Below are positions 7,272 through 33,625 of a stretch of DNA of 64,000 nt, in pieces. Numbering within the stretch: the first letter of the stretch is position 1; each line of letters starts with the position of its first letter. The position numbers were made by a program, and so were the translations under genes. The DNA comes from Thermoplasmatota archaeon. Its GTDB lineage: Archaea > Thermoplasmatota > Thermoplasmata > Halarchaeoplasmatales > Halarchaeoplasmataceae. The notes beneath the pieces are model-generated. The model did not search any database, had not been told where the DNA came from, and was given only the letters and a program-made list of their open reading frames with translations. The stretch is from contig JBNJDY010000001.1 in the NCBI GenBank assembly GCA_051745305.1, positions 2,065-66,064 of the forward strand. The letters are read 5' to 3'.

Positions 7272-8577
7272 GTTGAAAATAACCGTAATAGGATCACTAG
7301 TAATATTTGCACTGACTTATTACGGCATCATCAACAGACGAATACACAGAACCATAGCAGCCATGTCCGGCGGTATTTTTATGATACTGATCGGACATTG
7401 GATGGGATTCTACGATGCAAATCAAGCCATAGACTATATCGATTTCAATACCATCGGATTACTTTTTGGTATGATGATAATAGTTGGAATGCTGGGAGAT
7501 ACGGGATTCTTTAGATATTTAGCTATCAAAATCGCAAAGTTCTCAAACGGCAGTTATTACAAACTCTTGGCTTTACTAGTATTGGTGACTGCTTTTACTT
7601 CAGCTTTTCTAGATAATGTGACTACTATTCTTTTGATGGTGCCGATCACGATCACTATCGCGAGAGAATTAGATGTGACCCCTATTCCATTTTTGATGGC
7701 GGAATTGATCGCATCTAACATCGGTGGAACGATGACGTTGATAGGTGATCCTCCTAATATCATGATCGGAAGTGCTGCAAATATACATTTTATCCATTTC
7801 ATCATATATCTTGCACCAATTGTTATCATAGTTCTATTCATAGTACTACTAGTCTTTGAATTATCTAACTATGAATTGCTTAATCAAGAGATGACGAGGT
7901 TTGATGATATACTTAAACTAGATGCAAATGCCAGTATAGTCAATTATGATTTGCTGAAAAAAACAATTTTTATACTTACAATAACAATCTTATTATTTAC
8001 TGTTCACCATATTTTAAATTTGGAGCCTTGGTTTGTTGCAGTTTTGGGAGCTAGCCTTCTTTTACTTTTGACATTCACTGAGCCTGAAGAGGCATTGAAA
8101 CATGTCCATTGGGAAACTTTATTATTCTTCATGGGCTTGTTCATAGTCATAGGAGGTCTTCATAGTGCTGGTGTTATTGAGATCATCGCCTTGGAGATAG
8201 AGATATTCAGCGGTCACAGCTTGGTTTTATCCATGTTCATTATAATTATGATAAGTGGTCTTTTCGCCATTGTTATGGGAAATATACCAGCCGCTATTAT
8301 ATTGATTCCAGTTGTTAATATTTTCATCGATCATTCGGGATTGGGGGCAGGATTTATAATAAATCCTCTATGGTGGGCCCTATCATTGGGAACTTGTTTT
8401 GGTGGTAATGGTACTTTGATAAGTGCTCCAGCAAATCTCGTCGTTTCAAACATCTCTAATAAAATGGGGGAACCTATATCATTTTGGGGATATGCGAGAA
8501 AGGCACTTCCAATAACTATACTTTCTTTGTTCCTGTCGTTTATTTTCCTTTGGTTATTCTACATTGTTTTACTGTGA
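7264..8577 (+). CDS. Ion-transporter superfamily permease (ArsB/NhaD/DASS-like), paralog 1
   Basis: It is polytopic with the duplicated motifs IGGTMTLIGDPPN and GGNGTLISAPANL. It is closely similar to 8676..9980. Confidence 0.6.
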   Translation: MTELKITVIGSLVIFALTYYGIINRRIHRTIAAMSGGIFMILIGHWMGFYDANQAIDYIDFNTIGLLFGMMIIVGMLGDTGFFRYLAIKIAKFSNGSYYKLLALLVLVTAFTSAFLDNVTTILLMVPITITIARELDVTPIPFLMAELIASNIGGTMTLIGDPPNIMIGSAANIHFIHFIIYLAPIVIIVLFIVLLVFELSNYELLNQEMTRFDDILKLDANASIVNYDLLKKTIFILTITILLFTVHHILNLEPWFVAVLGASLLLLLTFTEPEEALKHVHWETLLFFMGLFIVIGGLHSAGVIEIIALEIEIFSGHSLVLSMFIIIMISGLFAIVMGNIPAAIILIPVVNIFIDHSGLGAGFIINPLWWALSLGTCFGGNGTLISAPANLVVSNISNKMGEPISFWGYARKALPITILSLFLSFIFLWLFYIVLL

Positions 8578-8675
8578 TTTTAAACCTATGAATATAAACT
8601 ATGAAAAACTGTAAATAGCTTAACATATCCTGGTTTTCAAAATGTGTATATAATAATTAAGAATAGGCGAAAGAT

Positions 8676-9980
8676 ATGACGGTAGAGGTTATCGGTTCAA
8701 TTATAATATTCGCATTATCTTACTATGGTATCGTTTCTAAGCGTATCCATAGAACGATAGCCGCCCTTTCAGGGGCCGTTGGTATGCTGCTTTTTGGACA
8801 CGGTTTGGGATTTTATGATACCCATGCAGCGATTGATTATATCGATTTCAATACTATCGGATTATTACTGGGTATGATGATTTTAGTGGGGCTACTAGGT
8901 GAAACCGGGTTTTTCAAATATGTTGCAATAAAAACAGCAAAAGCTTCCGAAGGTAGTTATTATAGATTACTCGCATTTTTTGTTCTAGTGACGGCTTTTA
9001 CATCTGCATTTCTTGACAATGTTACAACCATTTTACTTTTAGCTCCAGTTACTATCACTATAGCAAAAGAGATGGACATAAATCCTATACCTTTCCTAAT
9101 GACCGGTATTGTATCCGCAAACATAGGGGGTACCGCCACCCTGATAGGTGATCCTCCTAATGTGATAATCAGCAGTGCAACCGGAATCCAATTCAACGAA
9201 TTTATTTTATATTTGGCACCGATAGTGATCATCATCCTATTTGTGATACTGTTAGTCTTTGAATTTATTTACAAAGATATTGTCGAAACAGATATTGAAA
9301 ATTTCTCAAAGATAAAGAATATGGATGAAAAAAGTGCAATCACTAACAAATCCTTGTTAAATAAAGCATTGTTCGTCTTATTAATCACTACAATACTATT
9401 CTTATTTCATCATATAATCGGTATCGAGCCTTGGTTGGTGGCCATAACAGGTGCAAGTCTTCTTCTTATACTTTCACTTTCTGATCCGGAGGAAGCTCTA
9501 CAACACGTTCACTGGACCACATTGTTATTTTTTGCTTCTAAATTTATCCTAATCGGTGGATTGGATCAAGCGGGGATAATTCGAATGATAGGTTTTGGTA
9601 TGGTAAATGCAGCTGGTGAAAGTGTAGTTTTATCTATATTCATAGTACTTATGGTAGCTGGGGTATCGGCCATAATAATCGGGAACATACCTGCTGTAAT
9701 TGCACTTATACCTGCAGTTGAAATCTTTATAACACAGAGCCAGATGTTTGAAGGTTTTGCTGTTAATCCATTTTGGTGGGCTCTATCTCTTGGAGTGTGC
9801 CTGGGTGGTAATGGAACTCTAATCAGTTCTCATACTAATATGATCGTCTCAAGTATATCTGGTAAGATGGGATATCCTCTTTCATATTGGAAATACACAA
9901 AAACCGGCCTTCCAATAACAATTTTGTCTTTGTTTATAGCATTCTTTTTGATGGTTCTGTTTTTTGTAGTAATACTCTAA
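8676..9980 (+). CDS. Ion-transporter superfamily permease (ArsB/NhaD/DASS-like), paralog 2
   Basis: It carries the same motifs (IGGTATLIGDPPN, GGNGTLISSHTN) and is collinear with paralog 1 along its whole length. Confidence 0.6.
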   Translation: MTVEVIGSIIIFALSYYGIVSKRIHRTIAALSGAVGMLLFGHGLGFYDTHAAIDYIDFNTIGLLLGMMILVGLLGETGFFKYVAIKTAKASEGSYYRLLAFFVLVTAFTSAFLDNVTTILLLAPVTITIAKEMDINPIPFLMTGIVSANIGGTATLIGDPPNVIISSATGIQFNEFILYLAPIVIIILFVILLVFEFIYKDIVETDIENFSKIKNMDEKSAITNKSLLNKALFVLLITTILFLFHHIIGIEPWLVAITGASLLLILSLSDPEEALQHVHWTTLLFFASKFILIGGLDQAGIIRMIGFGMVNAAGESVVLSIFIVLMVAGVSAIIIGNIPAVIALIPAVEIFITQSQMFEGFAVNPFWWALSLGVCLGGNGTLISSHTNMIVSSISGKMGYPLSYWKYTKTGLPITILSLFIAFFLMVLFFVVIL

Positions 9981-10027
9981 ATAAAAGCAAAAAGTGTAAA
10001 TATATACATCAACTTATGATTATACAT

Positions 10028-10837
10028 ATGTTCAAGAATATACTCATAGCTACAGACGATTCCGAACTCATAAAAAATGCCATCAGATATACATCTAATG
10101 CTTTTCCGGATTCACAATACCATCTTTTAAATGTATTATACTCTACTGAATCAAGTGTTCCATCAACAGACATACTGATGAAAGACTTGAATCAAGCCTC
10201 TAAAAGAGCGATCCAAGACGGAGTTGAAATACTGCGAGATATGGGTATAGATAAAATCAAGAAAAGTGTTAGAGAAGGTGTTCCGAGTAAACAGATATTG
10301 AGATATGCGGAGGAAAATCATATAGATATGATCGTTATGGGAACCCAATCTAAATCTGGTATACAGACTTACGAGATAGGTAATACATGTATTCATACCT
10401 TAGAAAATACCACTATACCTGTGCTGCTTTTCGATACGATAGTCGATATAGTTGACCCCAAGAAGATTCTCCATCCAACAAGTGGAAGTAAATACTCTGT
10501 AGAAGCCGGTTATGTCGCAATAGAATTAGCTGAATACTTTAAAGGGAAAGTAAAAGTCCTATGTATCCGGGGAGATAAAGAAACTGAAGTTTCTTTCCGT
10601 AGATTGGAGACCTTTGCCGAGAAAAACAAAATATCTTTCAACATAAGTGCTTGTACTAAGAAACCAAACAAAGAAATTGTAAGAGAATCTAAAAAGAACG
10701 ATATAGTTGTCACTAGTCGTGGTAGACCTGGATTTAAGTACAAATTAAGAAAGATATATCCTCCATTCGCTCTTGGCACATTAGAAAGAGAGATTATTGT
10801 TGAGGCCAGGAAACCGGTACTCTTTGTAGGAGATTAA
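10028..10837 (+). CDS. Universal stress protein with tandem Usp domains
   Basis: MFKNILIATDDS parallels the start of 6465..7271. The listed ORF start at 9887 overlaps the permease by 94 bp and is probably too long. Confidence 0.7.
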   Translation: MFKNILIATDDSELIKNAIRYTSNAFPDSQYHLLNVLYSTESSVPSTDILMKDLNQASKRAIQDGVEILRDMGIDKIKKSVREGVPSKQILRYAEENHIDMIVMGTQSKSGIQTYEIGNTCIHTLENTTIPVLLFDTIVDIVDPKKILHPTSGSKYSVEAGYVAIELAEYFKGKVKVLCIRGDKETEVSFRRLETFAEKNKISFNISACTKKPNKEIVRESKKNDIVVTSRGRPGFKYKLRKIYPPFALGTLEREIIVEARKPVLFVGD

Positions 10838-14271: not shown

Positions 14272-15174
14272 TTATAGTCTCTTTATAACGTATTCCTTAA
14301 ATAGCTCTTCAAATTCTTTCTGAGCAATTGTTTGATCGATTTCACGTTTTACAGGAGGTGTATCTTCGTACCCTGGGAGAATTTTTTGAATTCTTTCTTT
14401 AAACGTTGATTTCTTCTCGTTTTTTAGGAAGACTCCAGTGTATATCTTTTCTTCATCGTTTAACATCTTAAACGCATGGTTAATTTTGTCCTCGTCATCT
14501 TTGACTTCTGGATCATAGTTTTCGCCCAGTTGTTCAACATTGTTCTTTATATATTCCCATGTATGGATATCGTTGTAGGTAACACATGGTTGTAAAATAT
14601 CAATGAATGCTGTTCCTTCGTGTTGGATACCTTCCATTATCAATTCTTTCAATTGTTTCGGATCGAGAGCGGAACCCCTTGCCACGTATGTAAAACCACA
14701 TGTTAAAGCGAGTTTTAATGGTTCGACTGGATCCTGTATATTCGGTTTGAATAGTGCCTTTGTTTTAAGATCTTTATCTAAAGTTGGTGCTGCTTGACCC
14801 TTGGTTAACCCATAAACTCTGTTATCATGGAGTAAGATTGTCATATCGATATTTTTTCTACCGAGAGCTACGATATGTCCCGCACCTATGCCCAGAAGGT
14901 CACCGTCACCACCGTTGACTATTATGTCAAGTTCAGGATTCGATATCTTTATGCCCGTTGCAAAGGGGATAGCTCTACCATGAAGTGTATGGACTCCTGA
15001 AACATCTATGAAATGAGGTATCTTACCAGAGCATCCTATCCCTGAAACAACTACGGTGTTTTCTTTAGATAGTTCAAGTTCTTTAAAGGCTTTGTACATG
15101 CTGGAAACTATACCAAAGTCTCCACATCCTTTACACCAATCAACCCAAACATCGCTTTCATAATCATGGGCCAT
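14272..15174 (-). CDS. 2-oxoacid:ferredoxin oxidoreductase beta subunit (TPP-binding)
   Basis: The motifs CKGCGDFG, GIGCSGK and GGDGD are typical of the POR/KOR beta subunit. Confidence 0.9.
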   Translation of the reverse strand: MAHDYESDVWVDWCKGCGDFGIVSSMYKAFKELELSKENTVVVSGIGCSGKIPHFIDVSGVHTLHGRAIPFATGIKISNPELDIIVNGGDGDLLGIGAGHIVALGRKNIDMTILLHDNRVYGLTKGQAAPTLDKDLKTKALFKPNIQDPVEPLKLALTCGFTYVARGSALDPKQLKELIMEGIQHEGTAFIDILQPCVTYNDIHTWEYIKNNVEQLGENYDPEVKDDEDKINHAFKMLNDEEKIYTGVFLKNEKKSTFKERIQKILPGYEDTPPVKREIDQTIAQKEFEELFKEYVIKRL

Positions 15175-17026
15175 GTTCTATCACCTTCCTTTTATCTCCA
15201 TCTAAAATATCTTTGATGGCTTTTTTCACTTCCATGAGATGCATAGGTCTACCAGTGTATTTTACGATCTCATTCCCGATGGTAATACCGGTATTCATGG
15301 CTATAGACCTCTTTATTAAAGGCGTGTGAGTGTGTTCAACTGCTATGCAAGTTTCACATTTCGATAATATATCTTTGACTGAATCTGCTGGGAACGGAGA
15401 GAACATCTTTATGTGAAGATAAGCTCCATCTATCTCCTCAATAGCATCTAGACATACACCTTTCACAGAACCCCATCCGACGAGTATGAAATCTGGGTTA
15501 TCTGGTCCGAAATATTTGAATTGTTTTTCATCAGGGATTTCTTTAGATGCTAATTCTAGTTTTTCCATCCTCTTATCCTGCATCTTAACACGAGTTCCTG
15601 GATTTTCAGTGACGTTACCATAGTCATCGTGTTCACTTCCAGTATACCACATGACTTCCTGACCTAGAAAGGCTCTTTTTGAAACTGGGCCATCAGTGAA
15701 TCGTTTGTAATCTTTAGAACCACCTATATCACCCCTTCTAATTTCTATGTTGGAAGAGTCAGGGGATTTCATGTTAACAACAGAGTTGGCTAAGAATTTA
15801 TCGAGCATGTGTATGACTGGGACTTGGTATTCCTCTGCGAAGTTGAATGCTTCGACGGCGTCATAGAAGGCCTCTTCGTGATCGCCGGAACAGACGACTA
15901 TCTTGGGAATTTCACCGTGCGAGCCGTATAATGCTGAGAAAAGGTCGGATTGACCACCTCTAGTGGGCATACCCGTACTTGGTCCTCCCCTTTGATAATA
16001 AGTTACAACCACCGGGACCTCGTTGATACCTGCCCAACCGATCCCCTCGACCATTAGACTGTATCCAGGTCCGCTTGTAGCGGTAGCACTCCTTGCCCCG
16101 GTCAATGACGATCCGATAGCAGAATTGATAGCTGCGAGCTCGTCCTCTGTTTGAATAACCACTATATTCTTTTCTTCTCCATACTCTTCTAAAAAGAAGC
16201 TTTCGTCGGCTGCAGGAGTGATAGGATAGTAACTTTGGAATGAAATACCACCCATGATCTTACCCATGCCAACAGCATCGTTTCCATTGACTAGAAGACG
16301 TTTGTCTTCATTCAGTTCTGATTTTTTTAATTCTAAAGGTGATCCGAGATCGTCTTTTATTTTGCTGGAGATGAGTTCGACGAAAAACTTGTTCTGGTCT
16401 GCGATTTTTTCTTTACCTTTGAATTTCCGTTCTACCGCTACGTTTAGACTTTTTTCATCAAGACCTATAAGCCCAGATACTGCACCTATCAGTATAGAAC
16501 TAACATATCGAGACGCATGGGATGATGATAATTCGAAATTCTCTTGAAGCTCCTCTAAAAGGGCTTGAAAATCGAGAGGTATAGCGGTTATATCTTTTTC
16601 TTCCTCTAAGTATTGGATTAGTTCATTTATCTCGTTGCCTATATCATTCTTTTTGTAAGCTGATTTCAATTCGTGACTAATGCTTGGAATATCGTCGATG
16701 TTGGTATCTTCGGTGGAAACGTCGTAAACAACATATCCTTCCTCTTCAACATCCTCATAATGGGTAAAAAGAGTTTCTGCGTCCATGCATCCCAATAACT
16801 GGATAGGGTACGTCAAGGATCTTGGATAAGTTTTGGAAGAGATTTTACTGTGTACGTAACTATGTTTACCTTTTATGTTAGAATAGTACTCTCTGTCAGC
16901 TATAGAGCCGTAACCTTTGGAGGTCAAAGCGTACGTCAATATTTGGGCAGTAGTTTCAAGTCCGGCTCCCTGTTCACCACCAATGATGAATAATAATTCT
17001 TCTCTACTCATATTTTCAGTCTCCAA
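15164..17026 (-). CDS. 2-oxoacid:ferredoxin oxidoreductase alpha subunit (fused gamma-alpha; two-subunit OFOR type)
   Basis: This 620 aa protein has a gamma-like N-terminus followed by the alpha domain. It overlaps the beta gene by 11 bp. Confidence 0.9.
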   Translation of the reverse strand: METENMSREELLFIIGGEQGAGLETTAQILTYALTSKGYGSIADREYYSNIKGKHSYVHSKISSKTYPRSLTYPIQLLGCMDAETLFTHYEDVEEEGYVVYDVSTEDTNIDDIPSISHELKSAYKKNDIGNEINELIQYLEEEKDITAIPLDFQALLEELQENFELSSSHASRYVSSILIGAVSGLIGLDEKSLNVAVERKFKGKEKIADQNKFFVELISSKIKDDLGSPLELKKSELNEDKRLLVNGNDAVGMGKIMGGISFQSYYPITPAADESFFLEEYGEEKNIVVIQTEDELAAINSAIGSSLTGARSATATSGPGYSLMVEGIGWAGINEVPVVVTYYQRGGPSTGMPTRGGQSDLFSALYGSHGEIPKIVVCSGDHEEAFYDAVEAFNFAEEYQVPVIHMLDKFLANSVVNMKSPDSSNIEIRRGDIGGSKDYKRFTDGPVSKRAFLGQEVMWYTGSEHDDYGNVTENPGTRVKMQDKRMEKLELASKEIPDEKQFKYFGPDNPDFILVGWGSVKGVCLDAIEEIDGAYLHIKMFSPFPADSVKDILSKCETCIAVEHTHTPLIKRSIAMNTGITIGNEIVKYTGRPMHLMEVKKAIKDILDGDKRKVIEHGP

Positions 17027-17431: not shown

Positions 17432-17941
17432 ATGCAGGACGCGGAAAAAGTGATGAACAGGTTCTTGGAAGATTATGAAGAAGATCCAAATGGATGGAAG
17501 TTCTGGACCGATAAGTCTGGAGAGTTCTATGACATATATATCATACGTGAAGATACCGGATACTTCCTCAAGATCGATTCCATATATACACAGAATCCCA
17601 TCGGCAAAGGTACGAAGATCGATATAGACGGGGTGAAGATCGAAAGGGACCTTCCAAGTTTTGGGTACCGGCATTTCACCAGAGATGAACTGGAGAACTT
17701 TATGCACATCCTAGAAGAATGTAAGGATGATAAAGAAAAGGCACAAAAAGTTATCAAGAAAAAGATGAGTGAAAAACCTACACGATTATCATCTGTAGAT
17801 AAAGAGGGTGCCCTTATGATGGGACCTATAAACAAAGGGTATCCCTTCGATCCTGAAGATTCGAAGTACCAGAGGATTGACAAAGAATTGAAAAAGAAAT
17901 TACTCAAAAAGTTCAGGAACGAAAAGCCTATGTACCGTTAA
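17432..17941 (+). CDS. Hypothetical protein
   Basis: This 169 aa charged protein has no recognisable motif and good coding potential. Confidence 0.4.
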   Translation: MQDAEKVMNRFLEDYEEDPNGWKFWTDKSGEFYDIYIIREDTGYFLKIDSIYTQNPIGKGTKIDIDGVKIERDLPSFGYRHFTRDELENFMHILEECKDDKEKAQKVIKKKMSEKPTRLSSVDKEGALMMGPINKGYPFDPEDSKYQRIDKELKKKLLKKFRNEKPMYR

Positions 17942-17943
17942 TA

Positions 17944-18933
17944 TCAAAAGTGACCTCTCATAAATTCCGCTATGTTTTCTGGAGCCTTATTGGAAGATTT
18001 TTCACCTAGGAGCTTTTCTAATGAGAAAACGTCACACCAATAGTACTTATCAAAATTACTTCTAGCGACTATATCTACGACGGTTCTGTTCCTATTTTCT
18101 CCTAGTGGCGACATGAGCACGGAGATGTTGTATGAATTCTTCCCCATTTCGTAGTAACCCTTCAGAACATTAACGATACCCTGTGCCATCCCTTCTAAAT
18201 AGTCATTTTCTAAATCTGTAAAGTCTTCTAAACACACTCCTCTAACGTGTTCTAAGCCCAAAGGAGCAAAAGGAGTCTTCCATGTGAATCCATCGGATTC
18301 GGATATAAACCTCTCTCCGTTCTTTTCTTCCTTAACTAACTCCTTCCAGTACGATGTTTCGTTCTCGTCATAGAACCTTTCTTCAGAAGATAAGATCTGG
18401 TCCTGGTTCTCGAAAGGTGTCCCGGTCACCATGACTTGTATGTGGGGATGAGTTACGGTACTACCAGCGGGTTTCAGGTAGTTCATGATTATAGTTGGAA
18501 ATACGTCACTTTCGATCTTTGTTAATTTTTTAAGGTACCTTTGAACAAGCTTAAAAGCGTTCAGAAAATGTTCTTTTTTGAACTCGTCCAACCTTAGGTA
18601 ATGAGTTTTGGTTAAAGGTATCACCAACGAATACTCTGCATACGGGGAGATGTTGGATAACAGCGATGCTTCTCCTTCTTTCATCATCTCACCTTCCAAC
18701 ACCTTACAATCTCTCGCCCCGACAGTCTCGATATTTTCTGGACAGAAGGGACAGAAACCTTTCTCCATTTTATCCATATCTGCGCCTTTCTCCATGGGAA
18801 GAGGTTTTTCAAGTATTCTAGAAGTTCTACCTGTCAAAGGATCGTATCTGATCTCGACGGAAGTATCTTTAAACTCATCTTCAGATGGATCATAGAACTG
18901 GCTGGTTTCGACTTCTTTCTTGAATTCTATCAT
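17944..18933 (-). CDS. Galactose-1-phosphate uridylyltransferase (GalT/HIT-like) family protein
   Basis: It has a CPFCPEN zinc motif and the HPHIQ nucleotidyl-transfer motif. Confidence 0.7.
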   Translation of the reverse strand: MIEFKKEVETSQFYDPSEDEFKDTSVEIRYDPLTGRTSRILEKPLPMEKGADMDKMEKGFCPFCPENIETVGARDCKVLEGEMMKEGEASLLSNISPYAEYSLVIPLTKTHYLRLDEFKKEHFLNAFKLVQRYLKKLTKIESDVFPTIIMNYLKPAGSTVTHPHIQVMVTGTPFENQDQILSSEERFYDENETSYWKELVKEEKNGERFISESDGFTWKTPFAPLGLEHVRGVCLEDFTDLENDYLEGMAQGIVNVLKGYYEMGKNSYNISVLMSPLGENRNRTVVDIVARSNFDKYYWCDVFSLEKLLGEKSSNKAPENIAEFMRGHF

Positions 18934-19229: not shown

Positions 19230-20003
19230 TCAAAATTCTCCGAATCCGACGGTCACTAGACTCATCTCTTCAGGATCGTATTCCCCACCTGTTTTATAAC
19301 CTAAAACGATCCCATCACATGGCGATTTTACAGTTTCCGAATCTAGATATCCAACGACATCACCTTCTTTGATTATATCTTCAAGTTCAACATCAGGTTC
19401 GAATACTCCCTCACCGTCTGGGTTGAAGCGATCGTATTCCCTGATAAATTGAACTTCTTTTTCGGGTTCTTCTCCAGCGATAAAGCGTTTCAAAGCTGAT
19501 CTCACTATATCTATCTCATTCCTCAACCAGTTAGCGCCGCCTGCTTCGATTATCATGGATGGGATACCTATCTTTGACAGTTCTATGAACAATTGTCCTT
19601 CAGCACCTAAACTCTGGACAGCATATTTTATACCCACTTTTTTACAGAGTTCTTCATTGAAGTCATATTCCAGTTTTGTCAACATGTACGGGATACATTT
19701 ACTCTCATCTCCATAGGTGTGGAGGTCTATAACGGCATCGAACTTTTTCGCCTTTTGAAAGATATCATGGGCGATTACTTCAGAACGTGTACCATCTTTA
19801 TTACCGGGAAAAATTCTGTTCAGATCCTTACAATCAACTGGATTCTCTCGCTGACGTGCCTCGATGGCTTTTAGATTTATATCTGGAATCACTTCTACTT
19901 GTTCAATTCCTCTCCCTTCAAGCCAACCTTTGATCTCCCTAGCTACAAACATAGAGCCGATCTCGTTCCCGTGAACCCCGGCTGTTATGAGTATGTTTTT
20001 CAT
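19230..20003 (-). CDS. Succinylglutamate desuccinylase/aspartoacylase (AstE/AspA) family zinc hydrolase
   Basis: The N-terminal ITAGVHGNE motif and the overall length fit this family. Confidence 0.8.
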   Translation of the reverse strand: MKNILITAGVHGNEIGSMFVAREIKGWLEGRGIEQVEVIPDINLKAIEARQRENPVDCKDLNRIFPGNKDGTRSEVIAHDIFQKAKKFDAVIDLHTYGDESKCIPYMLTKLEYDFNEELCKKVGIKYAVQSLGAEGQLFIELSKIGIPSMIIEAGGANWLRNEIDIVRSALKRFIAGEEPEKEVQFIREYDRFNPDGEGVFEPDVELEDIIKEGDVVGYLDSETVKSPCDGIVLGYKTGGEYDPEEMSLVTVGFGEF

Positions 20004-20131
20004 GATTTATTAATACATATCCGTCTATTTTACGGTTTTCATAGGATATGTTTGGTCATTAGAAGGTTATCTTACGGCCATATAAAAAAATATATATGTA
20101 ATTATATCTTTCCACTTTATAGAGGGATATC

Positions 20132-20893
20132 ATGACCGAAGATAATAAATTCGAAAAATTAAGAAAATTCAATGCATTTATGGCAGTGTTACACTTTATA
20201 CAGGGCGCCCTAATGTTATACTTAAGCACAGACTTTGCCATTTCGATCACTAGAACATATATGGCCGGACCTCCCGGTACGGATAGGATGGTAACTAGTA
20301 CTCTTTTTGACCTACAATTGGGACCAGCGGTGGCTGCTTTCCTGTTCATGTCTGCGATCGCCCATTTTGTAGTATCTACTATAGGCTTCGATTGGTATAA
20401 AAGAAATCTGAAAAATCATATCAATAAAGCGAGATGGGTTGAATACTCGTTCAGTAGTTCACTGATGATAGTCCTGATAGCTATGCTCGTAGGAATAACA
20501 AACATAGAATTCTTGGTAGTGATATTCATCGTTAACGCTTCCATGATACTATTTGGATGGCTTATGGAATCGTACAATCAAAACACGGAAAAAGTGGTAT
20601 GGACTCCGTTCATCTTTGGATGTATAGCTGGTATAGCTCCTTGGATAGCAATCGCAATACGTTTACTGACCGCCGTATCTGAGTCACCAGAACCTGTACC
20701 GAGTTTCGTTATCTGGATCTTCGTTTCGATCGCGATATTCTTCAACATCTTCGCCCTGAATCAACTTTTACAATACAAGAAGGTAGGTCCCTGGGCCGAT
20801 TACCTATATGGAGAAAGGATGTACATCATACTTAGTTTAGTAGCAAAGTCAGCTCTAGCATGGCAGGTTTTCGCAGGAACGTTAGCAGGGTAG
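20132..20893 (+). CDS. Heliorhodopsin (7-TM retinal protein)
   Basis: It is 253 aa with 7 TM helices. It carries the RWVEYSFSS counterion-Glu motif, the VNASMILFGW motif, the FGCIAGIAPW motif and a TM7 Lys in VAKSALAWQ, following heliorhodopsin signatures as I recall them. Confidence 0.8.
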   Translation: MTEDNKFEKLRKFNAFMAVLHFIQGALMLYLSTDFAISITRTYMAGPPGTDRMVTSTLFDLQLGPAVAAFLFMSAIAHFVVSTIGFDWYKRNLKNHINKARWVEYSFSSSLMIVLIAMLVGITNIEFLVVIFIVNASMILFGWLMESYNQNTEKVVWTPFIFGCIAGIAPWIAIAIRLLTAVSESPEPVPSFVIWIFVSIAIFFNIFALNQLLQYKKVGPWADYLYGERMYIILSLVAKSALAWQVFAGTLAG

Positions 20894-20939: not shown

Positions 20940-22094
20940 GTGAAAACTTTGCTGATATGTACCAAATGTTCGAAAAGTAAACCTGAAACGGATACGGAAC
21001 AGCGATGCCAGTGCGGTGAACCGCTTGAGTTCGAATATCTGACGGGTGAAGTTTGTAAACCAGGTTCTGTATGGAATCGGTACAAAGAATTTTACGGATT
21101 CGATATGTCTGATTCTGGTTCTTTAGGTGAAGGTGATACATCTCTAACCCGGTTGAACAAACTTTCCTCTGAACTAGATATCGAGCTTTTTGCTAAGAAT
21201 GAAACGACCAATCCGACCTGGAGTTTCAAAGACAGGGGAACGTCCCTTGGAGTTCAACAAGCTGTCAAAAATGATTTCTCAAAGATTGGCACAGTTTCCA
21301 CAGGGAATATGGCGGTAAGTGTTGCTGCCTACGGAGCTAGATTCAATCTAGATACACACATATTGGTATCAAAAAATATCGATAAAGTCAAACTTTCTCA
21401 GATCGGAGTTTATGGTCCAAAGATATATCGAGTTGACGGGGACTACGGAAAACTGTATTTTACAAGTTTGGAAGTGGGTAGAAGTAAAGATATCTACTTC
21501 ATCAACTCTGATGATCCTTATAGAGTGGAGGGATACAAAACAATAGGATTCGAAATTGCTGAAGATATGATCCCCGATCACATATTGATACCCACTAGTT
21601 CGGGTGGATTGTTCAGAGGGATCGTGAAAAGTTTTATTGAGTTGAAAAAGAGTAGTATAATTCAACGACTTCCAAAATTTACAGCAGTCCAAGCTGAAGG
21701 CTGTTCACCGATCTACGATGCTTTCAATGAAGGGAAAAACAAAATATCTCACGTAGAAGAGAAAAATACTTTCGCCAAGGCCATAGCGAATCCATACCCA
21801 CCAAGCGGGAACGAGGTCTTAAGAAAATTAAAAGAAATAGATGGAAATTGTGTCGTAGTCAGCGACGGAGAGATTATGAGTTCGCAGAAAGAATTAGCTT
21901 CTGAAGGGATATTTGCTCAACCAGCAGCTTGTGTTGGGATAGCAGCAGTTAAAAAGTTGAAGGATCATGAAAACATTGAGGAAGGAGAGAAAGTGGTAAG
22001 CATAATTACAGGTTCGGGTCTCAAAGTTAGCAGTGGAGAGTTTAATGAACCACAGATCACAGATTTAAATATAGATGAATTAGAAACGATTTAA
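20940..22094 (+). CDS. Threonine-synthase family PLP enzyme with N-terminal zinc ribbon (ThrC or cysteate-synthase-like)
   Basis: It has the SFKDRG PLP-lysine motif, a C-terminal glycine-rich loop, and an N-terminal CTKC...CQCG motif. Confidence 0.75.
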   Translation: MKTLLICTKCSKSKPETDTEQRCQCGEPLEFEYLTGEVCKPGSVWNRYKEFYGFDMSDSGSLGEGDTSLTRLNKLSSELDIELFAKNETTNPTWSFKDRGTSLGVQQAVKNDFSKIGTVSTGNMAVSVAAYGARFNLDTHILVSKNIDKVKLSQIGVYGPKIYRVDGDYGKLYFTSLEVGRSKDIYFINSDDPYRVEGYKTIGFEIAEDMIPDHILIPTSSGGLFRGIVKSFIELKKSSIIQRLPKFTAVQAEGCSPIYDAFNEGKNKISHVEEKNTFAKAIANPYPPSGNEVLRKLKEIDGNCVVVSDGEIMSSQKELASEGIFAQPAACVGIAAVKKLKDHENIEEGEKVVSIITGSGLKVSSGEFNEPQITDLNIDELETI

Positions 22095-26479: not shown

Positions 26480-27097
26480 ATGGAATCTATGGGGCAAAAA
26501 GTAGAAACTGTTAAAGAGATTGACCGAATCAAAATATCCTTGGAGGAGACCAGGGAGAAGATTCTAGCTTTGCTTAGAGTTAACAACATGTCGATCTCTC
26601 AGATCGCGGAAGTTTTGAATAAGGACCAATCTACAATAAACAGACACATAAAGAAACTGGAAAATGCTGGTTTTGTAGAAGTGGTCGGGGAGAGAAAAGA
26701 ACACCATATTCCAGAAAGGATATATGGAAGGGCTGCAGATACCTTTTTAATTAACCCTGATGTTCAAAGTACAAAGAAATTAGCTTCTCTAATGATCAAA
26801 TGGAACCTGGGTTACAATATAGATACCTTGGAAAAACTCGATATGGTAGGATACAGCGAGGGAATCTCTGAAAACACTCTGATAAACATTTATGATTTTA
26901 TAGAAAGTATGAACCAACATTTATCCACAAAAGTGGATGAATTAGAAAGAGAAGTAATGGATATGAACTATCGTGAATTGATCAAACTAAAACTTCTACT
27001 GTACCTTATTGAAATAAATAATGATAAAGATTTAGAAAATTATTTTTCTAAGGTTTTTTCAGATTTCAAAGGTATTATTAATTGGGAAGATGAGTAG
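26480..27097 (+). CDS. ArsR-like wHTH regulator with C-terminal domain of unknown function (paralog 1 of 3)
   Basis: It has the wHTH MSISQIAEVLNKDQSTINRHIKKLENAGFVE and no metal-binding ELCVCD-type motif. Confidence 0.6.
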   Translation: MESMGQKVETVKEIDRIKISLEETREKILALLRVNNMSISQIAEVLNKDQSTINRHIKKLENAGFVEVVGERKEHHIPERIYGRAADTFLINPDVQSTKKLASLMIKWNLGYNIDTLEKLDMVGYSEGISENTLINIYDFIESMNQHLSTKVDELEREVMDMNYRELIKLKLLLYLIEINNDKDLENYFSKVFSDFKGIINWEDE

Positions 27098-27144: not shown

Positions 27145-27732
27145 ATGAAGGAAGATGTAGAACTTGTACATGACTCTGAGAGGATAAAGATTCTCCTCGA
27201 AGATACTAGAAAAAACATTTTGAATCTTCTAAAGGTAGAAGATATGTCGATCTCTCAGTTAGCTGAAGGATTGGACAAAGACCGTTCTACAATATATAGA
27301 CATGTTAAAAAATTAGAGGATTATGGGTATGTTGAGTTGAAAGGAGAAAGGATCGTGAATAATGTGCCAGGGATGGTTTACGGACGAACGGCTGTGTTAT
27401 TTTTACCTTGCCCAAAATCAATGGAACCTGGAGATCCTATACTTGAAAGTTTTTCGTGGGATGAAGAAAGTACATATAATATACTAGATTGTTTAAAATT
27501 ATTGGGTTATGATTTTGATTTAACTGAAGATTTAGCTAGGGATATCAGTAATATATTTACTAAAATTGATAACAATATAATCGATATCTTTAGAGAAACA
27601 GATTTAGTAGAAATGGATCACCTGGAAGCTTTAAGGCTTAAATTTTTAATTATTTTGATAGAATTCTCCAATAACGAAAAACTAAGAGATGATATCGAAA
27701 GCGTGATATCTGGTTTCGAAATACCTGAATAA
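27145..27732 (+). CDS. ArsR-like wHTH regulator (paralog 2 of 3)
   Basis: It has the wHTH MSISQLAEGLDKDRSTIYRHVKKLEDYGYVE and is collinear with its two neighbours. Confidence 0.6.
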   Translation: MKEDVELVHDSERIKILLEDTRKNILNLLKVEDMSISQLAEGLDKDRSTIYRHVKKLEDYGYVELKGERIVNNVPGMVYGRTAVLFLPCPKSMEPGDPILESFSWDEESTYNILDCLKLLGYDFDLTEDLARDISNIFTKIDNNIIDIFRETDLVEMDHLEALRLKFLIILIEFSNNEKLRDDIESVISGFEIPE

Positions 27733-27786: not shown

Positions 27787-28374
27787 ATGAAAAAAGACGT
27801 TAAAGTTGTTCGAGACCCAAAAGCTATCAAGATAGCTGTGGAAGATACAAGAAGTAATATCCTTTCTTTATTGAGGATAAATGATATGTCGATTTCGCAG
27901 CTAGCTGAATCATTGGATAAGGATCAGTCTACGATATACAGGCATATCAAAAAATTAGAAGAGTATGGATACCTCGAACCATCCGGTGAAAAGAAAACAC
28001 ATCACATCCCTGAAAAAATATACGGGAGGACTGCAGGCGTGTTTTTACTATGTCCGAGTAACATAGATACCGGCCAGCCTTCAGATATGATGGTGGAATG
28101 GGAACGAAATAAAGCTGAAAGGATTTTAGAACTGCTAGATGTCATGGGTTACGAATCTGAAGACGGTGAAGAACTAGTCGACGATATCTCGGAGATATTT
28201 ATCGATTTGAAAGAACGTGTTACCAATCCAATCGAAAAATCTGAAGACGAGATCGGTAAGATCAGTTTTGCGACTCTCTTAAGACTTGAACTATTACTAT
28301 TCCTTTTGGAACAGCGGAATGATGAAGAACTAAAAAACAAAGTTGATTCCGTGCTCGATAAGTTTGTACAATAA
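27787..28374 (+). CDS. ArsR-like wHTH regulator (paralog 3 of 3)
   Basis: It has the wHTH MSISQLAESLDKDQSTIYRHIKKLEEYGYLE. Confidence 0.6.
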   Translation: MKKDVKVVRDPKAIKIAVEDTRSNILSLLRINDMSISQLAESLDKDQSTIYRHIKKLEEYGYLEPSGEKKTHHIPEKIYGRTAGVFLLCPSNIDTGQPSDMMVEWERNKAERILELLDVMGYESEDGEELVDDISEIFIDLKERVTNPIEKSEDEIGKISFATLLRLELLLFLLEQRNDEELKNKVDSVLDKFVQ

Positions 28375-28613: not shown

Positions 28614-29738
28614 TCACATCTCAGATGTGTCAATATTCCATATAATATAAAGCGGTTCGCTTTTCATTCCAGTTACCAGTGAAAATCTTCCATTTAGGAT
28701 GATTTCATCTCCATCTTTAGTTACCGCCTTAAGATCTAGATTTTTTTCTTTGATCTTACCTTCGAAGATTAGATTTATTATTTGATCGAATTTTTCTTCA
28801 TCCTTATCTAGAAGTAAGTCCCTGCAATCGGTATCTAATATTTCGAAATCATGGTAGCCCAATAATTGACAAAAATTTTCATTAACGTCTATGAATTCTC
28901 CCTTTTTGTTTATCAAATTTACAGCATCGTAAGATCTATCAAATAATCCTCGAAAAGCCTCCTGACTTTCTATCAAATTTTCATATCTTTTTCGCTGTTC
29001 AGTAATGTCAATAAGCGAAATAACGCTCTTCTTGATCTCAGGAATGACTCCTAGCTGGATTATCATATCTCTAATTTCGCCAAACCTATTTACAAAATTA
29101 ACATCGAGATTATTAAAATTATTTTCAGAATCGGTTTTTATATTTTCACGAAGTTTCAATATCTTATCTAAATCAGAAGGGGAAAAAAATTTATCTAATG
29201 CCATATTATTTTCAAGTCTCTCTTTTGAATATCCTGTTAGTTGCTCAAATTCCTCGTTCACTATGTAGAATGTGTTATCTTCCTCCATCATGGCCATGGC
29301 AGTTCCCGTATTTTCAAAAATCCCTCTGTACTTCTTTTCACTCTCCACTAGCTTTCTTTCCATCTCATGTTTATAGAATGCCATCTGGATATTGCTGTGC
29401 AGTTCTCTCTTACGGTACGGTTTAAGGATGTATCCAAAGGGTTCGGTCACTTTAGCTCTTTCCAACCTTTTGTCATCTGCATATGCTGTGATATATATGA
29501 GTGGAATACCTAATTCAGACTTGATCTTATCTGCGGCTTCGATACCATCCATTTCACCCTTCAATACAATATCCATCAAGACCAAACCAGGTTCTAATTC
29601 TCTTGATCTCTCGATAGCCTCTTCTCCACTATTTACTATATCAACAACAGTGTATCCGATATCCTCAAGAGTTTGTTTGATATCCTCGGCTACAAGCCTT
29701 TCATCCTCCACTATCAATATATCTTTTTCATGCATCAA
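28614..29738 (-). CDS. Response regulator with a receiver domain and two PAS domains, and no DNA-binding output
   Basis: It has an N-terminal REC domain (ILIVEDE...LMDIVL...K) followed by PAS-like repeats. Its start overlaps the end of the kinase gene by 4 bp. Confidence 0.75.
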   Translation of the reverse strand: MMHEKDILIVEDERLVAEDIKQTLEDIGYTVVDIVNSGEEAIERSRELEPGLVLMDIVLKGEMDGIEAADKIKSELGIPLIYITAYADDKRLERAKVTEPFGYILKPYRKRELHSNIQMAFYKHEMERKLVESEKKYRGIFENTGTAMAMMEEDNTFYIVNEEFEQLTGYSKERLENNMALDKFFSPSDLDKILKLRENIKTDSENNFNNLDVNFVNRFGEIRDMIIQLGVIPEIKKSVISLIDITEQRKRYENLIESQEAFRGLFDRSYDAVNLINKKGEFIDVNENFCQLLGYHDFEILDTDCRDLLLDKDEEKFDQIINLIFEGKIKEKNLDLKAVTKDGDEIILNGRFSLVTGMKSEPLYIIWNIDTSEM

Positions 29739-32700
29739 ATTATATCCCCCTCTTTCCTAAACCCGATCTTAAACGTTGTTCCTCCATCCCGTATAACCTC
29801 TACCTCACCATCCAACTGATCTACTATCAACATGTGTATTAGTCTAAACCCAAAAGTCTCAGAACTATCTAAATCTATCTCTCCCGGTATCCCAACTCCA
29901 TTGTCACTGATCATTATTTCTATGATCTGATCATCAGTTAATTTAGTTGATATCTTCAATTTTTTCTTTCCTTCGTAATCATCTGGGAATGCGTGCTGTA
30001 AAGAGTTAGAAACGATTTCATTGATTACCTGAACACATGGATTGGCTTGATCTATACCGAGCACTATATCCTCCATATCGGTTTCCAGTTCAACTTCACC
30101 GTAACTAATATTGTAGCTTTGATATATAGTTCTAATCAGCTCTCTTATGTAAGCTTTCAATTCAATTCTCGTCATATCATCTGAACGATGAAGCATCTCA
30201 TGTATGAGAGCCATGGACTGTATACGATTCTGTCCTTCCTGTAAAATCTTCAAGGGATCTTTATTCCCCCTTTCAGATGCTTGCAATTTTAGGAGACTTG
30301 AAACTACTTGTAAATTATTTTTTACTCTATGATGGATCTCATCTAAGAGGATCTCTTTTTCTCTCAAAGACCTCTTCAATTTTTTTTCTGCCTTGATCTT
30401 ATTCATAGCCATGGCTAAATCACCAGCGATCTCCATAAGCAGACCTAATTCCTCATCATCTAGCACTTCTAGATTTTCTATAGCTAATATCCCCTCCAAT
30501 TTACTATCGATCAAGGGTGCTAGACCTCTGGTACTACAAATATCATCCTTTTCGCAACTTACGACTGATGGATCTTTTGTTTTTAGAAGGTCCTCTTTTT
30601 TCAAATCGGTCTCATCAAGACTGATATTACCCACTTTTTCGTATATATTTCCATCGTCTATGAGGAAGATTGAAACCCTTGAATAACCCCGTGTTTCCAT
30701 CAACAACGTCCTTGATTTCCTCATCAGCTCTAAAATATCATCTTCTTGTGTGATAAGTTTATTTACATTACCTATAGATTTCAGTAAACTATTCAGATGT
30801 TTTATTCTCTCCTCTTTCTTTTTACGCTCTGTGATATCCGCATGTGTACCTACAAATCGCGTTGGTTCACCGTTTTCATCTCGTTCAACGATACGTCCCC
30901 TCCCTCTGACCCACATATAATTCCCATCACTCCTTTTAAAACGGAATTCAACGTCAAATTTTTCAATTTCACCGTTAATATGTTTTTCTGCTTGTTCAAT
31001 AACGTAGTCTCTATCATCCCTATGAATCCGTTTTTTAAATTCTTCCAATTTGTGTGAAAATGCGTCTACCCCATAACCGGCCATTTCATAATATCTCGGA
31101 TCAAAATATACTTCGTCCGTTGTTAGATCCCAATCCCATATCCCTTCGTTTGTTACTGCCATCGCAAGATTTAATCGCTCTTTACTTTCTTTTATTGCAT
31201 CTTCCATTTCTTTTCTTTCAGTGATATCGATTACGGTACCGAACCCAGCGGTATCCCCCTCAAAATGAATCATCCCTCCAGTGAAGTAAACCCATTTAGA
31301 AGTCCCATCTTTTTTTACTATCTTGAACTCATACTGCGGGGGAATATCTTCTCCCTTTACTCTTGCAAGTCCTCTTTGTTTAACCATCTCTCGATGGTCT
31401 GGGTGTACCAATTCCCAAAAGGGTTTATTCAACAGCTCATCTTTTGAATAGCCAGTAAGATCTTCACTTGCATCATTAACATAAAGGAAGTTTTCCCGGT
31501 AAACGAATATTGTGAAGGGGCTGTTTTCGGACAGAGCTTTGAATTTTTCTTTGCTCTCTTTTAACTTTCTATAGTTACGTAATCTTTCGATAGTTTCTGT
31601 TACGTGGGCAATGAGAAGTTCGGTAATAGCTAGATCATCCTGGTCGAAATCATCTTTATGCTCAGAGAGGGCTTGGAAGACGCCAAAGTCCCCTATCGGT
31701 ACACTTATAGCAGACCGATAACTCTTTCTTTTTGGTTTAGCCAATTTTGACCCTTGAACATCTTCTATAAGGTAAGAATGGTTTGATTTTAGTGTTTCCC
31801 CAGCTACACCCTCGATAGGGTATCTATCACCTCTTTTATTGACTCCTCCTTTTGTGGCCTTTACTTCAAATTCTTCATTTTCCAAGATGTCGATGCTGCA
31901 TACATTAAAATTGAGTATGTTTTTAGCAGCCTCTAAAGTTATTTTGTAGAGTTCTTTCTCATCTGTAATTTTTACCATTTTTGTAGCTATATCATGGAGC
32001 TTTTTCACTTTCTTTTCGCTTCTTTGAAGTTCATCTTTTGCTTCTATTCGTTCGGTAATATCTGTGATAAAACCCTCTAGATATCTTTTACCATCTTTGT
32101 TTGTAACTTCTCTACCCTGCTCCCATAGCCACTTTATTTCCCCATCAGCCGTTTCGATCCTATAACTTAACTTAAAAGGTTCATCCTTGTCTAATGCAGA
32201 TTGGACCTTTTCCCAAACATAATCTCTATCTTCAGGGACTATAAGGTCACCATAAGCAACATTTTCATTGTCTTTTAAATCCTCTCGTTCATATCCAGTT
32301 AGCTCTTTAGTACCTTCACTGACGAATTTCATCGTATAATCTTTATTATTCAAGCATCGGTAGGCCATGCCGGTTAGATTGCTAAGAAGAGTTTCCATCT
32401 GGATGTGCTTTTCTTTAAGTTTTATTTCAACTTCCTTCATATCTGTAATATCGTTCAATATAATCATATTAAGAGGGGTACCATCTTCCCTTTCAGTAAA
32501 AGATATTTTTAGATCGATATATCGTTTATTACCATCTTTAGTTATAATTGTGAGATTAGGGTAGTTATGGGTATCACCTTTATTGATTATTTTATTAAAT
32601 ATATTTAATATTTCCTCTAATACATCTTTATCTACAAGTTTATGAGCAATATTTACAACATTCTTACCTAAAATCTCATCTTTACTTAAGCCGGTAATCT

Positions 32701-32767
32701 CCTCAAATTTCTCATTAATCTTCAAAATATTCCCATTTATATCAGTAACTAAAACACCGTCTTCCAT
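29735..32767 (-). CDS. Multi-PAS/GAF sensor histidine kinase (HisKA_2/HWE-type)
   Basis: This 1010 aa protein has repeated PAS/PAC modules, GAF-like segments, the H-box EIHHRVKNNLQVVSSLLKLQ and a C-terminal HATPase (DNGVGIP). Confidence 0.85.
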   Translation of the reverse strand: MEDGVLVTDINGNILKINEKFEEITGLSKDEILGKNVVNIAHKLVDKDVLEEILNIFNKIINKGDTHNYPNLTIITKDGNKRYIDLKISFTEREDGTPLNMIILNDITDMKEVEIKLKEKHIQMETLLSNLTGMAYRCLNNKDYTMKFVSEGTKELTGYEREDLKDNENVAYGDLIVPEDRDYVWEKVQSALDKDEPFKLSYRIETADGEIKWLWEQGREVTNKDGKRYLEGFITDITERIEAKDELQRSEKKVKKLHDIATKMVKITDEKELYKITLEAAKNILNFNVCSIDILENEEFEVKATKGGVNKRGDRYPIEGVAGETLKSNHSYLIEDVQGSKLAKPKRKSYRSAISVPIGDFGVFQALSEHKDDFDQDDLAITELLIAHVTETIERLRNYRKLKESKEKFKALSENSPFTIFVYRENFLYVNDASEDLTGYSKDELLNKPFWELVHPDHREMVKQRGLARVKGEDIPPQYEFKIVKKDGTSKWVYFTGGMIHFEGDTAGFGTVIDITERKEMEDAIKESKERLNLAMAVTNEGIWDWDLTTDEVYFDPRYYEMAGYGVDAFSHKLEEFKKRIHRDDRDYVIEQAEKHINGEIEKFDVEFRFKRSDGNYMWVRGRGRIVERDENGEPTRFVGTHADITERKKKEERIKHLNSLLKSIGNVNKLITQEDDILELMRKSRTLLMETRGYSRVSIFLIDDGNIYEKVGNISLDETDLKKEDLLKTKDPSVVSCEKDDICSTRGLAPLIDSKLEGILAIENLEVLDDEELGLLMEIAGDLAMAMNKIKAEKKLKRSLREKEILLDEIHHRVKNNLQVVSSLLKLQASERGNKDPLKILQEGQNRIQSMALIHEMLHRSDDMTRIELKAYIRELIRTIYQSYNISYGEVELETDMEDIVLGIDQANPCVQVINEIVSNSLQHAFPDDYEGKKKLKISTKLTDDQIIEIMISDNGVGIPGEIDLDSSETFGFRLIHMLIVDQLDGEVEVIRDGGTTFKIGFRKEGDII

Positions 32768-32965
32768 AAACTCTATCAGCCGTAAAGCGCTCTTCTCAAG
32801 CTTATCATCTGGGATTATTCTCCCCCCTATATAATGTAATTAACAAGTCTTTTAATTATCTATTACTCACATTCCAATTTATAAATATGTAAATAATTGA
32901 TTTAAACCTTTCGTATATTTTCTAAGTCAATATTTTATAGAATATAATTAACAAACTTCTAAACA

Positions 32966-33625
32966 TCAAGTCTTCAAAAATTTGATATCTAGGCGTGCTC
33001 CACCCATTTCAGATTCCTTTAATTCGATATTTCCATCGTACTTCTCGACGACTTCTTTAACATAACTTAACCCAAGTCCATTACCTGCATTATCTCCCAT
33101 TTTGACTCCAAAATCAAATAGATTGTCTTTAATTCCTTCTGGGATCCCTTTTCCATCGTCTTCCACTGTAACTGTTACTTGTTCATCTCCTTCTTTAACC
33201 TGTATAATTATTTTATCACAATCTGAATGTTTTATCGAATTGTCGATAAGATTCGAAAAGAGGTTCTTGTATAATTCACTGCCGATGACTGTTCCACCAG
33301 AACCTTCAACCTCAATTACTATGTCTCTTTCCCCAGCCAAGGTACGATATTCCCCCACAACCTGAGATAATATCTTTTCCAAATTTACTTCATATCCCTC
33401 GCGGTCCCAAATAGAACGTATATTTCGTACTTTCGATATCAGCTGGTTGCTCTCTTTAAGAGAATTCAACGCTTTTTCAACAAATTGTTCCTGCTGTTCG
33501 TTCAATTCAGTGTCCCGCATCAACTGTAGGTAACCAACAGCCACCTGTAACTTGTTTTTAAGGTCGTGTCTAAGCATCGAGTGAAGCTCTGCATCTTTCT
33601 TACTAAAAACCTCTTCGCTCATCAA
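32966..33625 (-). CDS. Soluble histidine kinase (HisKA + HATPase_c) with no sensor domain
   Basis: It has the H-box LRHDLKNKLQV and the G-box GNGLGLSYVKE. At 219 aa, it has no TM segments. Confidence 0.7.
   Translation of the reverse strand: MMSEEVFSKKDAELHSMLRHDLKNKLQVAVGYLQLMRDTELNEQQEQFVEKALNSLKESNQLISKVRNIRSIWDREGYEVNLEKILSQVVGEYRTLAGERDIVIEVEGSGGTVIGSELYKNLFSNLIDNSIKHSDCDKIIIQVKEGDEQVTVTVEDDGKGIPEGIKDNLFDFGVKMGDNAGNGLGLSYVKEVVEKYDGNIELKESEMGGARLDIKFLKT

Follow-up and report, generated by a model that had tools for sequence, protein, structure and literature searches.

A predicted sensory heliorhodopsin of a probably anaerobic, halophilic Thermoplasmatota archaeon, with no retinal pathway in the surrounding 64 kb

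What would an archaeon of probably anoxic sediment do with a light receptor whose chromophore it may be unable to make, and to what would such a receptor signal? This question is raised by a gene for a 253-residue protein in a 64,000-nucleotide stretch (hereafter the window) of contig JBNJDY010000001.1, from a Thermoplasmatota archaeon. A first-pass annotation, made by a model from the letters of the DNA, had read this gene as a heliorhodopsin (HeR) in an apparently anaerobic genome, with no beta-carotene dioxygenase visible in the window. It is near certain that the protein is an intact heliorhodopsin, a member of the inverted retinal-binding light-receptor family. Based on its residues, its relatives and its surroundings, we propose that it is a non-transporting sensory or regulatory HeR, loaded with exogenous retinal and signalling to a partner whose gene lies elsewhere, a reading to which we assign a moderate probability.

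The identity of the protein follows from several matches. The open reading frame (ORF), with its ATG start and stop codon, is exactly as first described (Table 1), and all four of the motifs that had been singled out (RWVEYSFSS, VNASMILFGW, FGCIAGIAPW and VAKSALAWQ) occur in the translation. The Pfam profile PF18761 (Heliorhodopsin), which the annotation had named as a check, is matched from end to end (profile positions 1-242 of 242; E = 1.2e-104; 349 bits against a cutoff of 26.7), as is the NCBIfam equivalog NF038020, 'heliorhodopsin HeR' (352 bits against a cutoff of 100), and because of these scores membership in the family lies far beyond chance. Among solved structures the sequence matches only heliorhodopsins, namely TaHeR (6IS6; E 4e-76) and 48C12 (E 4e-70), at 50-53% identity, and it aligns collinearly with both. 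A Pfam scan of the protein gave no match to the type-1 rhodopsin family PF01036 at E <= 1. Every sequence and structural hallmark of the family that could be tested is present. The opposite strand of the same interval is full of stops, and the antisense ORFs of 96 and 113 aa that a mechanical ORF list places across the gene are without support.

The predicted structure agrees with this assignment. An AlphaFold2 model, built on an alignment of 22 HeR relatives (60-89% identity), has a mean predicted local distance difference test score of 85 and contains seven transmembrane (TM) helices. Helices A and B are joined by a two-stranded beta-hairpin (strands 36-44 and 53-62) of a kind that only heliorhodopsins have (TaHeR paper). 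In a Foldseek search the model reached TM-scores of 0.92 to TaHeR 6IS6 (root-mean-square deviation 2.2 Å) and 0.91 to 48C12, whereas the best type-1 rhodopsin structures gave at most 0.64, with identities of at most 17%. Assignment as a type-1 microbial rhodopsin is therefore rejected, and no better fit to that family or to a non-rhodopsin seven-helix family, the outcome against which the annotation had set its claim, was found.

The residues expected to carry the photochemistry are also in place. The TM3 counterion Glu and the TM7 retinal Lys that had been pointed out are E104 and K239, which align with E107 and K241 of 48C12, and H21 and H78 make up the conserved His pair of the cytoplasmic hydrogen-bond network. 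Together with S74 and S235, these four residues are invariant in the 22-relative alignment. Lys and Arg residues number 13 on the N-terminus and loops 2, 4 and 6 versus 2 on loops 1, 3 and 5 and the C-terminus; by the positive-inside rule, this distribution implies a predicted inverted topology, N-in/C-out, so that on computational grounds the inverted orientation raised by the annotation agrees with the sequence.

Whether such a protein moves ions can be predicted from its gate. E191 and W195 of V2HeR3 are the hallmark gate residues of proton-transporting viral HeRs, and their equivalents in TaHeR are I199 and F203. Because the window HeR, mapped through TaHeR, has I200 and F204 at these positions, we predict that it is of the non-transporting TaHeR/48C12 type; for both of these proteins, no transport was detected in published work.

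The source of the chromophore is a separate matter. None of the ~60 window proteins scanned with Pfam matched a carotenoid or retinal gene family (blh, crt), which bears out the earlier statement that no beta-carotene dioxygenase is visible in the window, and the precomputed Pfam lists of the relatives' HeR flanks likewise contain no retinal or carotenoid gene. A missing retinal pathway is a known pattern for HeR hosts (TaHeR paper; Chazan preprint): blh is seldom found beside HeR genes, and the genomes that have both mostly carry other microbial rhodopsins as well (Chazan preprint), and a fenestration in TaHeR was proposed to capture exogenous retinal, since its host cannot make retinal (TaHeR paper). 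The positions of this lateral fenestration, which is also the proposed carotenoid site, were taken from a 2025 preprint (48C12 residues 162, 166, 169, 206, 207 and 210). All six are kept in the window HeR, as F160, C164, G167, F204, N205 and A208; within the clade, five are invariant among the 22 relatives and F160 is nearly so. Because no retinal pathway is seen in the window and the fenestration residues are intact, uptake of exogenous retinal by this lateral route would be the most economical explanation for how the window HeR is loaded.

From these elements we propose the following sequence of events. The apoprotein would be inserted N-terminus-in, as a dimer, and all-trans retinal made by neighbouring organisms would enter through the lateral fenestration. 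Light would isomerise the retinal, and the Schiff-base proton is expected to move into the internal network of E104 and the His residues, with no net ion transport. A long-lived intermediate could then alter the cytoplasmic surface and so modulate a partner protein not encoded next to HeR. The physiological sense of such a signal may be a warning, 'near lit, oxidising surface', for an oxygen-sensitive sediment dweller, as has been proposed for HeRs generally; published hypotheses converge on a role in sensing or photoprotection (Bulzu 2021 among the sources). The remark in the annotation that HeR function is still unresolved is partly outdated, since individual HeRs have been shown to regulate glutamine synthetase, photolyase or an ABC transporter or, in the case of viral ones, to transport protons.

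Four points weigh against this proposal. The window is only 64 kb of the genome, so retinal synthesis or an alternative pathway may be encoded elsewhere. The published partner classes (glutamine synthetase, photolyase, ABC transporter, MerR and others) are not adjacent, and no partner can be named. The nearest histidine kinases lie 8-12 kb from HeR. Finally, the sediment that yielded related metagenome-assembled genomes (MAGs) reached depths of 30 cm, to which no light penetrates.

The gene nevertheless bears the marks of use. Compared with an 89%-identical relative (locus L082), the proportion of nonsynonymous differences (pN) is 0.07 and that of synonymous differences (pS) 0.72, with synonymous sites nearly saturated, and the ratio of nonsynonymous to synonymous rates (dN/dS) between two relatives, L082 and L085, is 0.06. 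These values show strong purifying selection and argue for a functional gene. The 128-bp spacer upstream of HeR (20004-20131) holds an A-rich, TATA-like motif and a Shine-Dalgarno-like GAGGG. The HeR genes of L003, L004, L005, L082 and L085 are preceded at an equal distance by a AAAAATATATAT-type motif, of which L086 has a weaker form, and every relative of the lineage that was compared keeps GAGGG 5-8 nt ahead of its HeR start; both motifs persist even in loci where only 50-60 bp separate HeR from the end of the preceding gene. Given this conservation and the archaeal promoter geometry, we infer that they are HeR's own putative promoter and ribosome-binding site.

Xanthophylls are abundant in hypersaline systems, and the HeR could be a two-antenna light harvester that takes up exogenous xanthophylls through its fenestration. 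This proposal of the 2025 preprint is compatible with a sensor and finds all six carotenoid-site positions in place. However, it rests on docking and sequence statistics, leaves unstated what a non-transporting HeR would do with the harvested energy, and offers no output other than that of a sensor; we regard it as unlikely. Less probable still is that the protein is a relic or acts independently of light, its hosts living in dark, anoxic sediment. The MAG from 30 cm depth and the lack of a retinal pathway in the window would accord with such a state, but the strong purifying selection, the invariance of the Lys, counterion and retinal-pocket residues across the 22 relatives and the conserved promoter-like and Shine-Dalgarno-like motifs all speak against it.

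The flanking genes suggest another alternative, that HeR is a light-dependent regulator, by direct binding, of the adjacent ThrC or AstE/AspA deacylase, as AbHeR is of glutamine synthetase. Both enzymes are what the annotation had called them, according to profile matches, and the thrC product has an N-terminal CxxC...CxC zinc ribbon. The threonine synthase gene follows HeR closely on the same strand, no T-run terminator lies between them, HeR-enzyme operon pairs have precedents, and throughout the lineage HeR has an AstE homologue close by (52-57% identity, upstream of HeR in L003, L004, L005 and L082). Nevertheless, thrC adjoins HeR only in collinear contigs of the same species (L001 and L089-L092), the pairing is missing from all 80 species-level loci, and each related species has a different gene after HeR (PolD small subunit, HD, LSM plus L37e). 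An element resembling a B recognition element and TATA box (BRE/TATA) is centred ~26 nt before the thrC GTG, which would fit a leaderless transcript of its own. The AstE gene is divergent from HeR, and one or two genes separate the two in relatives. An HeR-thrC operon is rejected because the adjacency is confined to same-species contigs, and we hold regulation of either enzyme to be very unlikely. Proton transport, whether gated or driven by light as in the viral V2HeR3 group, is the most improbable alternative, for although some heliorhodopsins do transport protons and E228 and Q214 are present at positions equivalent to the proton-accepting group, the gate is that of non-transporting TaHeR and the protein is half identical (50-53%) to two HeRs in which transport went undetected.

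If the window HeR is indeed a sensory protein, its neighbourhood does not reveal what it signals to. When 14 window neighbours were compared by tblastn with the 80 loci, only the AstE homologue recurred, in three of them, and all-against-all clustering of 837 flanking ORFs gave a largest neighbour family found in 9 of the 80. The recurrent neighbours are an ABC ATPase (nine loci), photolyase, MsrA and DUF1722/2-thiouracil desulfurase (five each) and histidine kinases (four), and associations of this kind, with ABC ATPase, photolyase and others, are already published (Bulzu 2021; Shim et al. 2024). Ten operon-coupled groups have been described, namely glutamine synthetase (GS), NAD synthetase, photolyase, MerR, TerC, ABC transporter, short-chain dehydrogenase/reductase (SDR), alpha/beta hydrolase, DUF2177 and DUF2238 (Shim et al. 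2024); none of them supplies a co-oriented adjacent gene beside the window HeR, whose neighbours are the AstE-family gene, thrC, a RimI-type GNAT gene and PriL. The last two are followed by genes for a CDP-alcohol phosphatidyltransferase, an AAA_18 kinase-like protein and XseA. Further away, a signalling cluster contains a 1010-aa GAF and multi-PAS HisKA_2 kinase, a two-PAS response regulator and a short HisKA kinase; an HeR-kinase association has been reported in the literature, but at 8-12 kb downstream the cluster is too far from HeR to argue linkage. Because the neighbours are not conserved and the families recurring elsewhere are already published, the flanking genes give no functional lead or partner for the window HeR.

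One neighbour has been lost. The inferred ancestral order is STAND/TPR (-), DHH-DHHA1 (+), AstE (-), a NodU/CmcH-type carbamoyltransferase (+) and HeR (+). The carbamoyltransferase gene lies immediately upstream of HeR in related loci (five are given in Table 1), has decayed to a 69-aa C-terminal remnant in L085 (5737-5946), and is absent both upstream of the window HeR and elsewhere in the 64 kb. The carbamoyltransferase-HeR pair recurs in nine loci and is not among the ten published neighbour groups. An operon of the two is nevertheless rejected: HeR keeps its own TATA-like motif, and the carbamoyltransferase is decayed in L085 and absent from the window without a second copy.

Comparison with characterised systems places the window HeR more closely. 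TaHeR, from Thermoplasmatales archaeon SG8-52-1 (PDB 6IS6, 7U55), belongs to the same family and phylum (53% identity; TM-score 0.92), shares the counterion Glu, the Lys, the His pair, the Ile/Phe gate and the fenestration, and comes from a sediment MAG said to be without retinal synthesis. It differs in falling into another HeR clade with other Thermoplasmata (77% identity to L071), whereas the window HeR groups with hypersaline-sediment sequences, in having Y164 in place of F160, and in being experimentally characterised, whereas the window HeR is known from sequence and model. The founding actinobacterial HeR, 48C12 (PDB 6SU3, 6UH3), is ~51% identical and collinear apart from two one-residue indels, with E107, K241, H23, H80, F162, C166, G169, F206, N207 and A210 all matched; its host, in contrast, is bacterial, freshwater and aerobic. 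The viral V2HeR3 group has the family and the counterion Glu in common with the window HeR, which lacks the E191/W195 hallmark. AbHeR with glutamine synthetase, TfHeR with photolyase and OcHeR with the OmrDE ABC transporter are of the same family and presumably act by light-dependent protein-protein regulation, but their partner genes are not adjacent to the window HeR; ABC ATPase (nine) and photolyase (five of the 80) do reappear at loci of more distant HeRs. Closest are the HeRs of Ca. Natronoplasma/Haloplasmatales and of soda-lake and Great Salt Lake Thermoplasmata (74-89% identity), which share the AstE-side synteny and the promoter-like and Shine-Dalgarno-like motifs; most of them differ in having the carbamoyltransferase directly upstream, a gene lost in the window lineage.

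The host can be characterised in part from the window itself, which has a G+C content of 36-41% and no tRNA genes or Rfam matches. PriL primase subunit, aTrm56 and two FtsZ genes are archaeal markers. Two ferredoxin-linked oxidoreductases and a sulfhydrogenase-like NiFe hydrogenase are encoded (Table 1), and no oxidase or other respiratory gene was seen in the 64 kb; the anaerobic context given in the annotation is thus upheld, although 'strict' anaerobiosis cannot be proved from a stretch of this size. The 59 window proteins have a median isoelectric point (pI) of 5.04, with 81% below pI 6 and 16.9% Asp plus Glu versus 12.2% Lys plus Arg, an acidic proteome consistent with the signature of a 'salt-in' halophile, and the HeR, at pI 8.6, contrasts with it. 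Fully collinear contigs in the same 90% cluster come from JGI samples SL_5KL_010_SED, which judging from their names would be soda-lake sediment, and from GCA_019594235.1. The next relatives (74-82% identity) are soda-lake sediment Thermoplasmata MAGs (B1Sed10, T1Sed10), Great Salt Lake sediment MAGs, including the bin from 30 cm depth, and Ca. Natronoplasma. Such relatives were described as anaerobes of anoxic hypersaline sediment, in a proposed order Haloplasmatales (Great Salt Lake study). The host is probably an anaerobic, fermentative, halophilic 'salt-in' Thermoplasmatota archaeon that lives in soda-lake or hypersaline sediment and stands close to Ca. Natronoplasma/Haloplasmatales.

A neighbour-joining tree of 73 HeR sequences with 100 bootstraps, a simple method, places the window HeR with hypersaline Thermoplasmata (83% bootstrap) and TaHeR in a separate Thermoplasmata clade. 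A wider clade (74%) adds Halanaerobiales (87% alone), MSBL1/Hadarchaeia and a Great Salt Lake Paceibacterota MAG. The Halanaerobiales HeRs are the closest non-Thermoplasmata relatives of the window HeR (68-70% identical; P0040, P0045, P0051), and at least four MAGs from hypersaline and soda-lake sites, each binned independently, carry them (L007, L008, L009, L050). Pfam annotation of their flanks is taxonomically uninformative, but on the 118-kb contig of L008 an aspartate racemase located 2 kb from HeR has only Halanaerobiales among its named best matches (Iocasia, Orenia, Halanaerobium; 69-76% identity). Because of these matches and the number of independent MAGs, the Halanaerobiales assignment is not a binning accident.

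These relatives bear on the widely used 'monoderm-only' generalisation. Bulzu 2021 reports HeRs from monoderms, with three genomes of other phyla as the only exceptions, and lists Halanaerobiales among diderm Firmicutes; beyond that remark, none of the literature searched links HeR with Halanaerobiales. It is possible, though we offer this only tentatively, that a habitat-bound HeR lineage has been exchanged across domains among hypersaline and soda-lake anaerobes (Haloplasmatales-like Thermoplasmata, MSBL1/Hadarchaeia, the Paceibacterota MAG and Halanaerobiales), that it includes a diderm exception, as the listing of the order Halanaerobiales would imply, and that it serves as a danger sensor fed by leaked pigment. 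If so, the Halanaerobiales HeRs would break the monoderm-only rule and weaken explanations of HeR topology and function that need the absence of an outer membrane. HeR in retinal-auxotrophic anaerobes would then be a sensor of surface or oxidative danger, fed by retinal or carotenoids leaking from overlying haloarchaea and Salinibacter.

The window HeR itself is not new, as its exact sequence is already annotated as HeR in GenBank (MGM0404532.1, 'MAG: heliorhodopsin HeR [Thermoplasmatota archaeon]', on a 69-kb contig). Bulzu 2021 also describes HeRs from haloalkaline sediments, from strictly anaerobic Firmicutes and from Thermoplasmatota. With this annotation, and with HeRs of anaerobes without retinal synthesis already on record, the window HeR is an ordinary one: the annotation read an anaerobe without retinal genes correctly but overstated its interest, since TaHeR presents the same situation and both Bulzu 2021 and the Chazan preprint treat it. 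The family is large, with at least 7,999 matches among 8,000 candidates scored and 594 loci confirmed in species-representative genomes, and the window HeR adds one more uncharacterised member to these thousands. It is of modest value, as a clearly delimited member of a hypersaline-sediment clade: the proteome of its host is acidic, the window shows no retinal pathway, and the gene has a putative promoter to itself. As such it is a possible test case for how retinal-auxotrophic anaerobes load a rhodopsin and for what a stand-alone HeR signals to.

Table 1. Positions of the HeR gene, its key codons and motifs, and other features in the window or, where a locus is named, in related loci
Feature	Position	Strand	Basis or remark
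HeR coding sequence	20132..20893	+	ATG start, 253 aa + stop; ORF read, profile, PDB and model matches
A-rich/TATA-like motif atataaaaaaatatatat	20080..20097	+	ends ~34 nt before ATG; read directly
GAGGG Shine-Dalgarno-like motif	20122..20126	+	5 nt before ATG; read directly
H21 codon	20192..20194	+	48C12 H23; alignment
H78 codon	20363-20365	+	48C12 H80; alignment
E104 codon, Schiff-base counterion in TM3	20441..20443	+	48C12 E107, TaHeR E108; PDB alignment; model helix 99-119
Fenestration stretch	20609..20755	+	F160, C164, G167 (TM5), F204, N205, A208 (TM6), plus I200
K239 codon, retinal Schiff-base Lys in TM7	20846..20848	+	48C12 K241, TaHeR K238; alignment; model helix 224-250
AstE/AspA-family deacylase	19230..20003	-	AstE_AspA_cat PF24827, E 3.9e-25; divergent from HeR
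Threonine synthase thrC	20940..22094	+	PALP E 1.8e-67; TIGR00260 179.9 bits vs cutoff 167.1; 46 bp downstream of HeR
2-oxoacid:ferredoxin oxidoreductase, two subunits (fused alpha/gamma plus beta)	14272-17026	-	profile matches
Signalling cluster	28614-33625	-	two kinases and a response regulator
Sulfhydrogenase-like NiFe hydrogenase, four subunits, with HycI protease	33677-38049	-	profile matches
Aldehyde:ferredoxin oxidoreductase	50731-52479	+	profile match
NodU/CmcH-type carbamoyltransferase	L003 4261-5949; L004 3958-5928; L005 4300-5940; L082 4327-5946; L086 4294-5937	HeR strand	PF02543, PF16861
Halanaerobiales HeR	~6001-6759 in L007/L008		

Several other features of the window stand apart from HeR. 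Three tandem paralogues of 195-205 aa (26480-27097, 27145-27732 and 27787-28374, all +) have an N-terminal ArsR/HTH_5-type winged helix and a C-terminal part without family match. A unit of a Usp-domain protein and a CitMHS-family transporter is tandemly duplicated at 6465-10837 (+), in mirrored order (268 aa + 437 aa, then 434 aa + 316 aa). Two fusions are unusual, one of the aTrm56 tRNA 2'-O-methyltransferase to an HD domain (42387-43376, -; 329 aa) and one of RNase H to a topoisomerase-type C4 zinc ribbon (53071-53685, -; 204 aa). The FtsZ/tubulin-family paralogues at 45269-46282 (-) and 61241-62158 (-) lie 15 kb apart, and the second is far more divergent (Tubulin domain 69 bits vs 144 bits). 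Four ORFs have no or only a marginal Pfam or NCBIfam family: 441-1880 (+; 479 aa), 60174-61208 (+; 344 aa), 17432-17941 (+; 169 aa) and 17944-18933 (-; 329 aa). The last two of these are conserved in the same-species contigs L089-L092.

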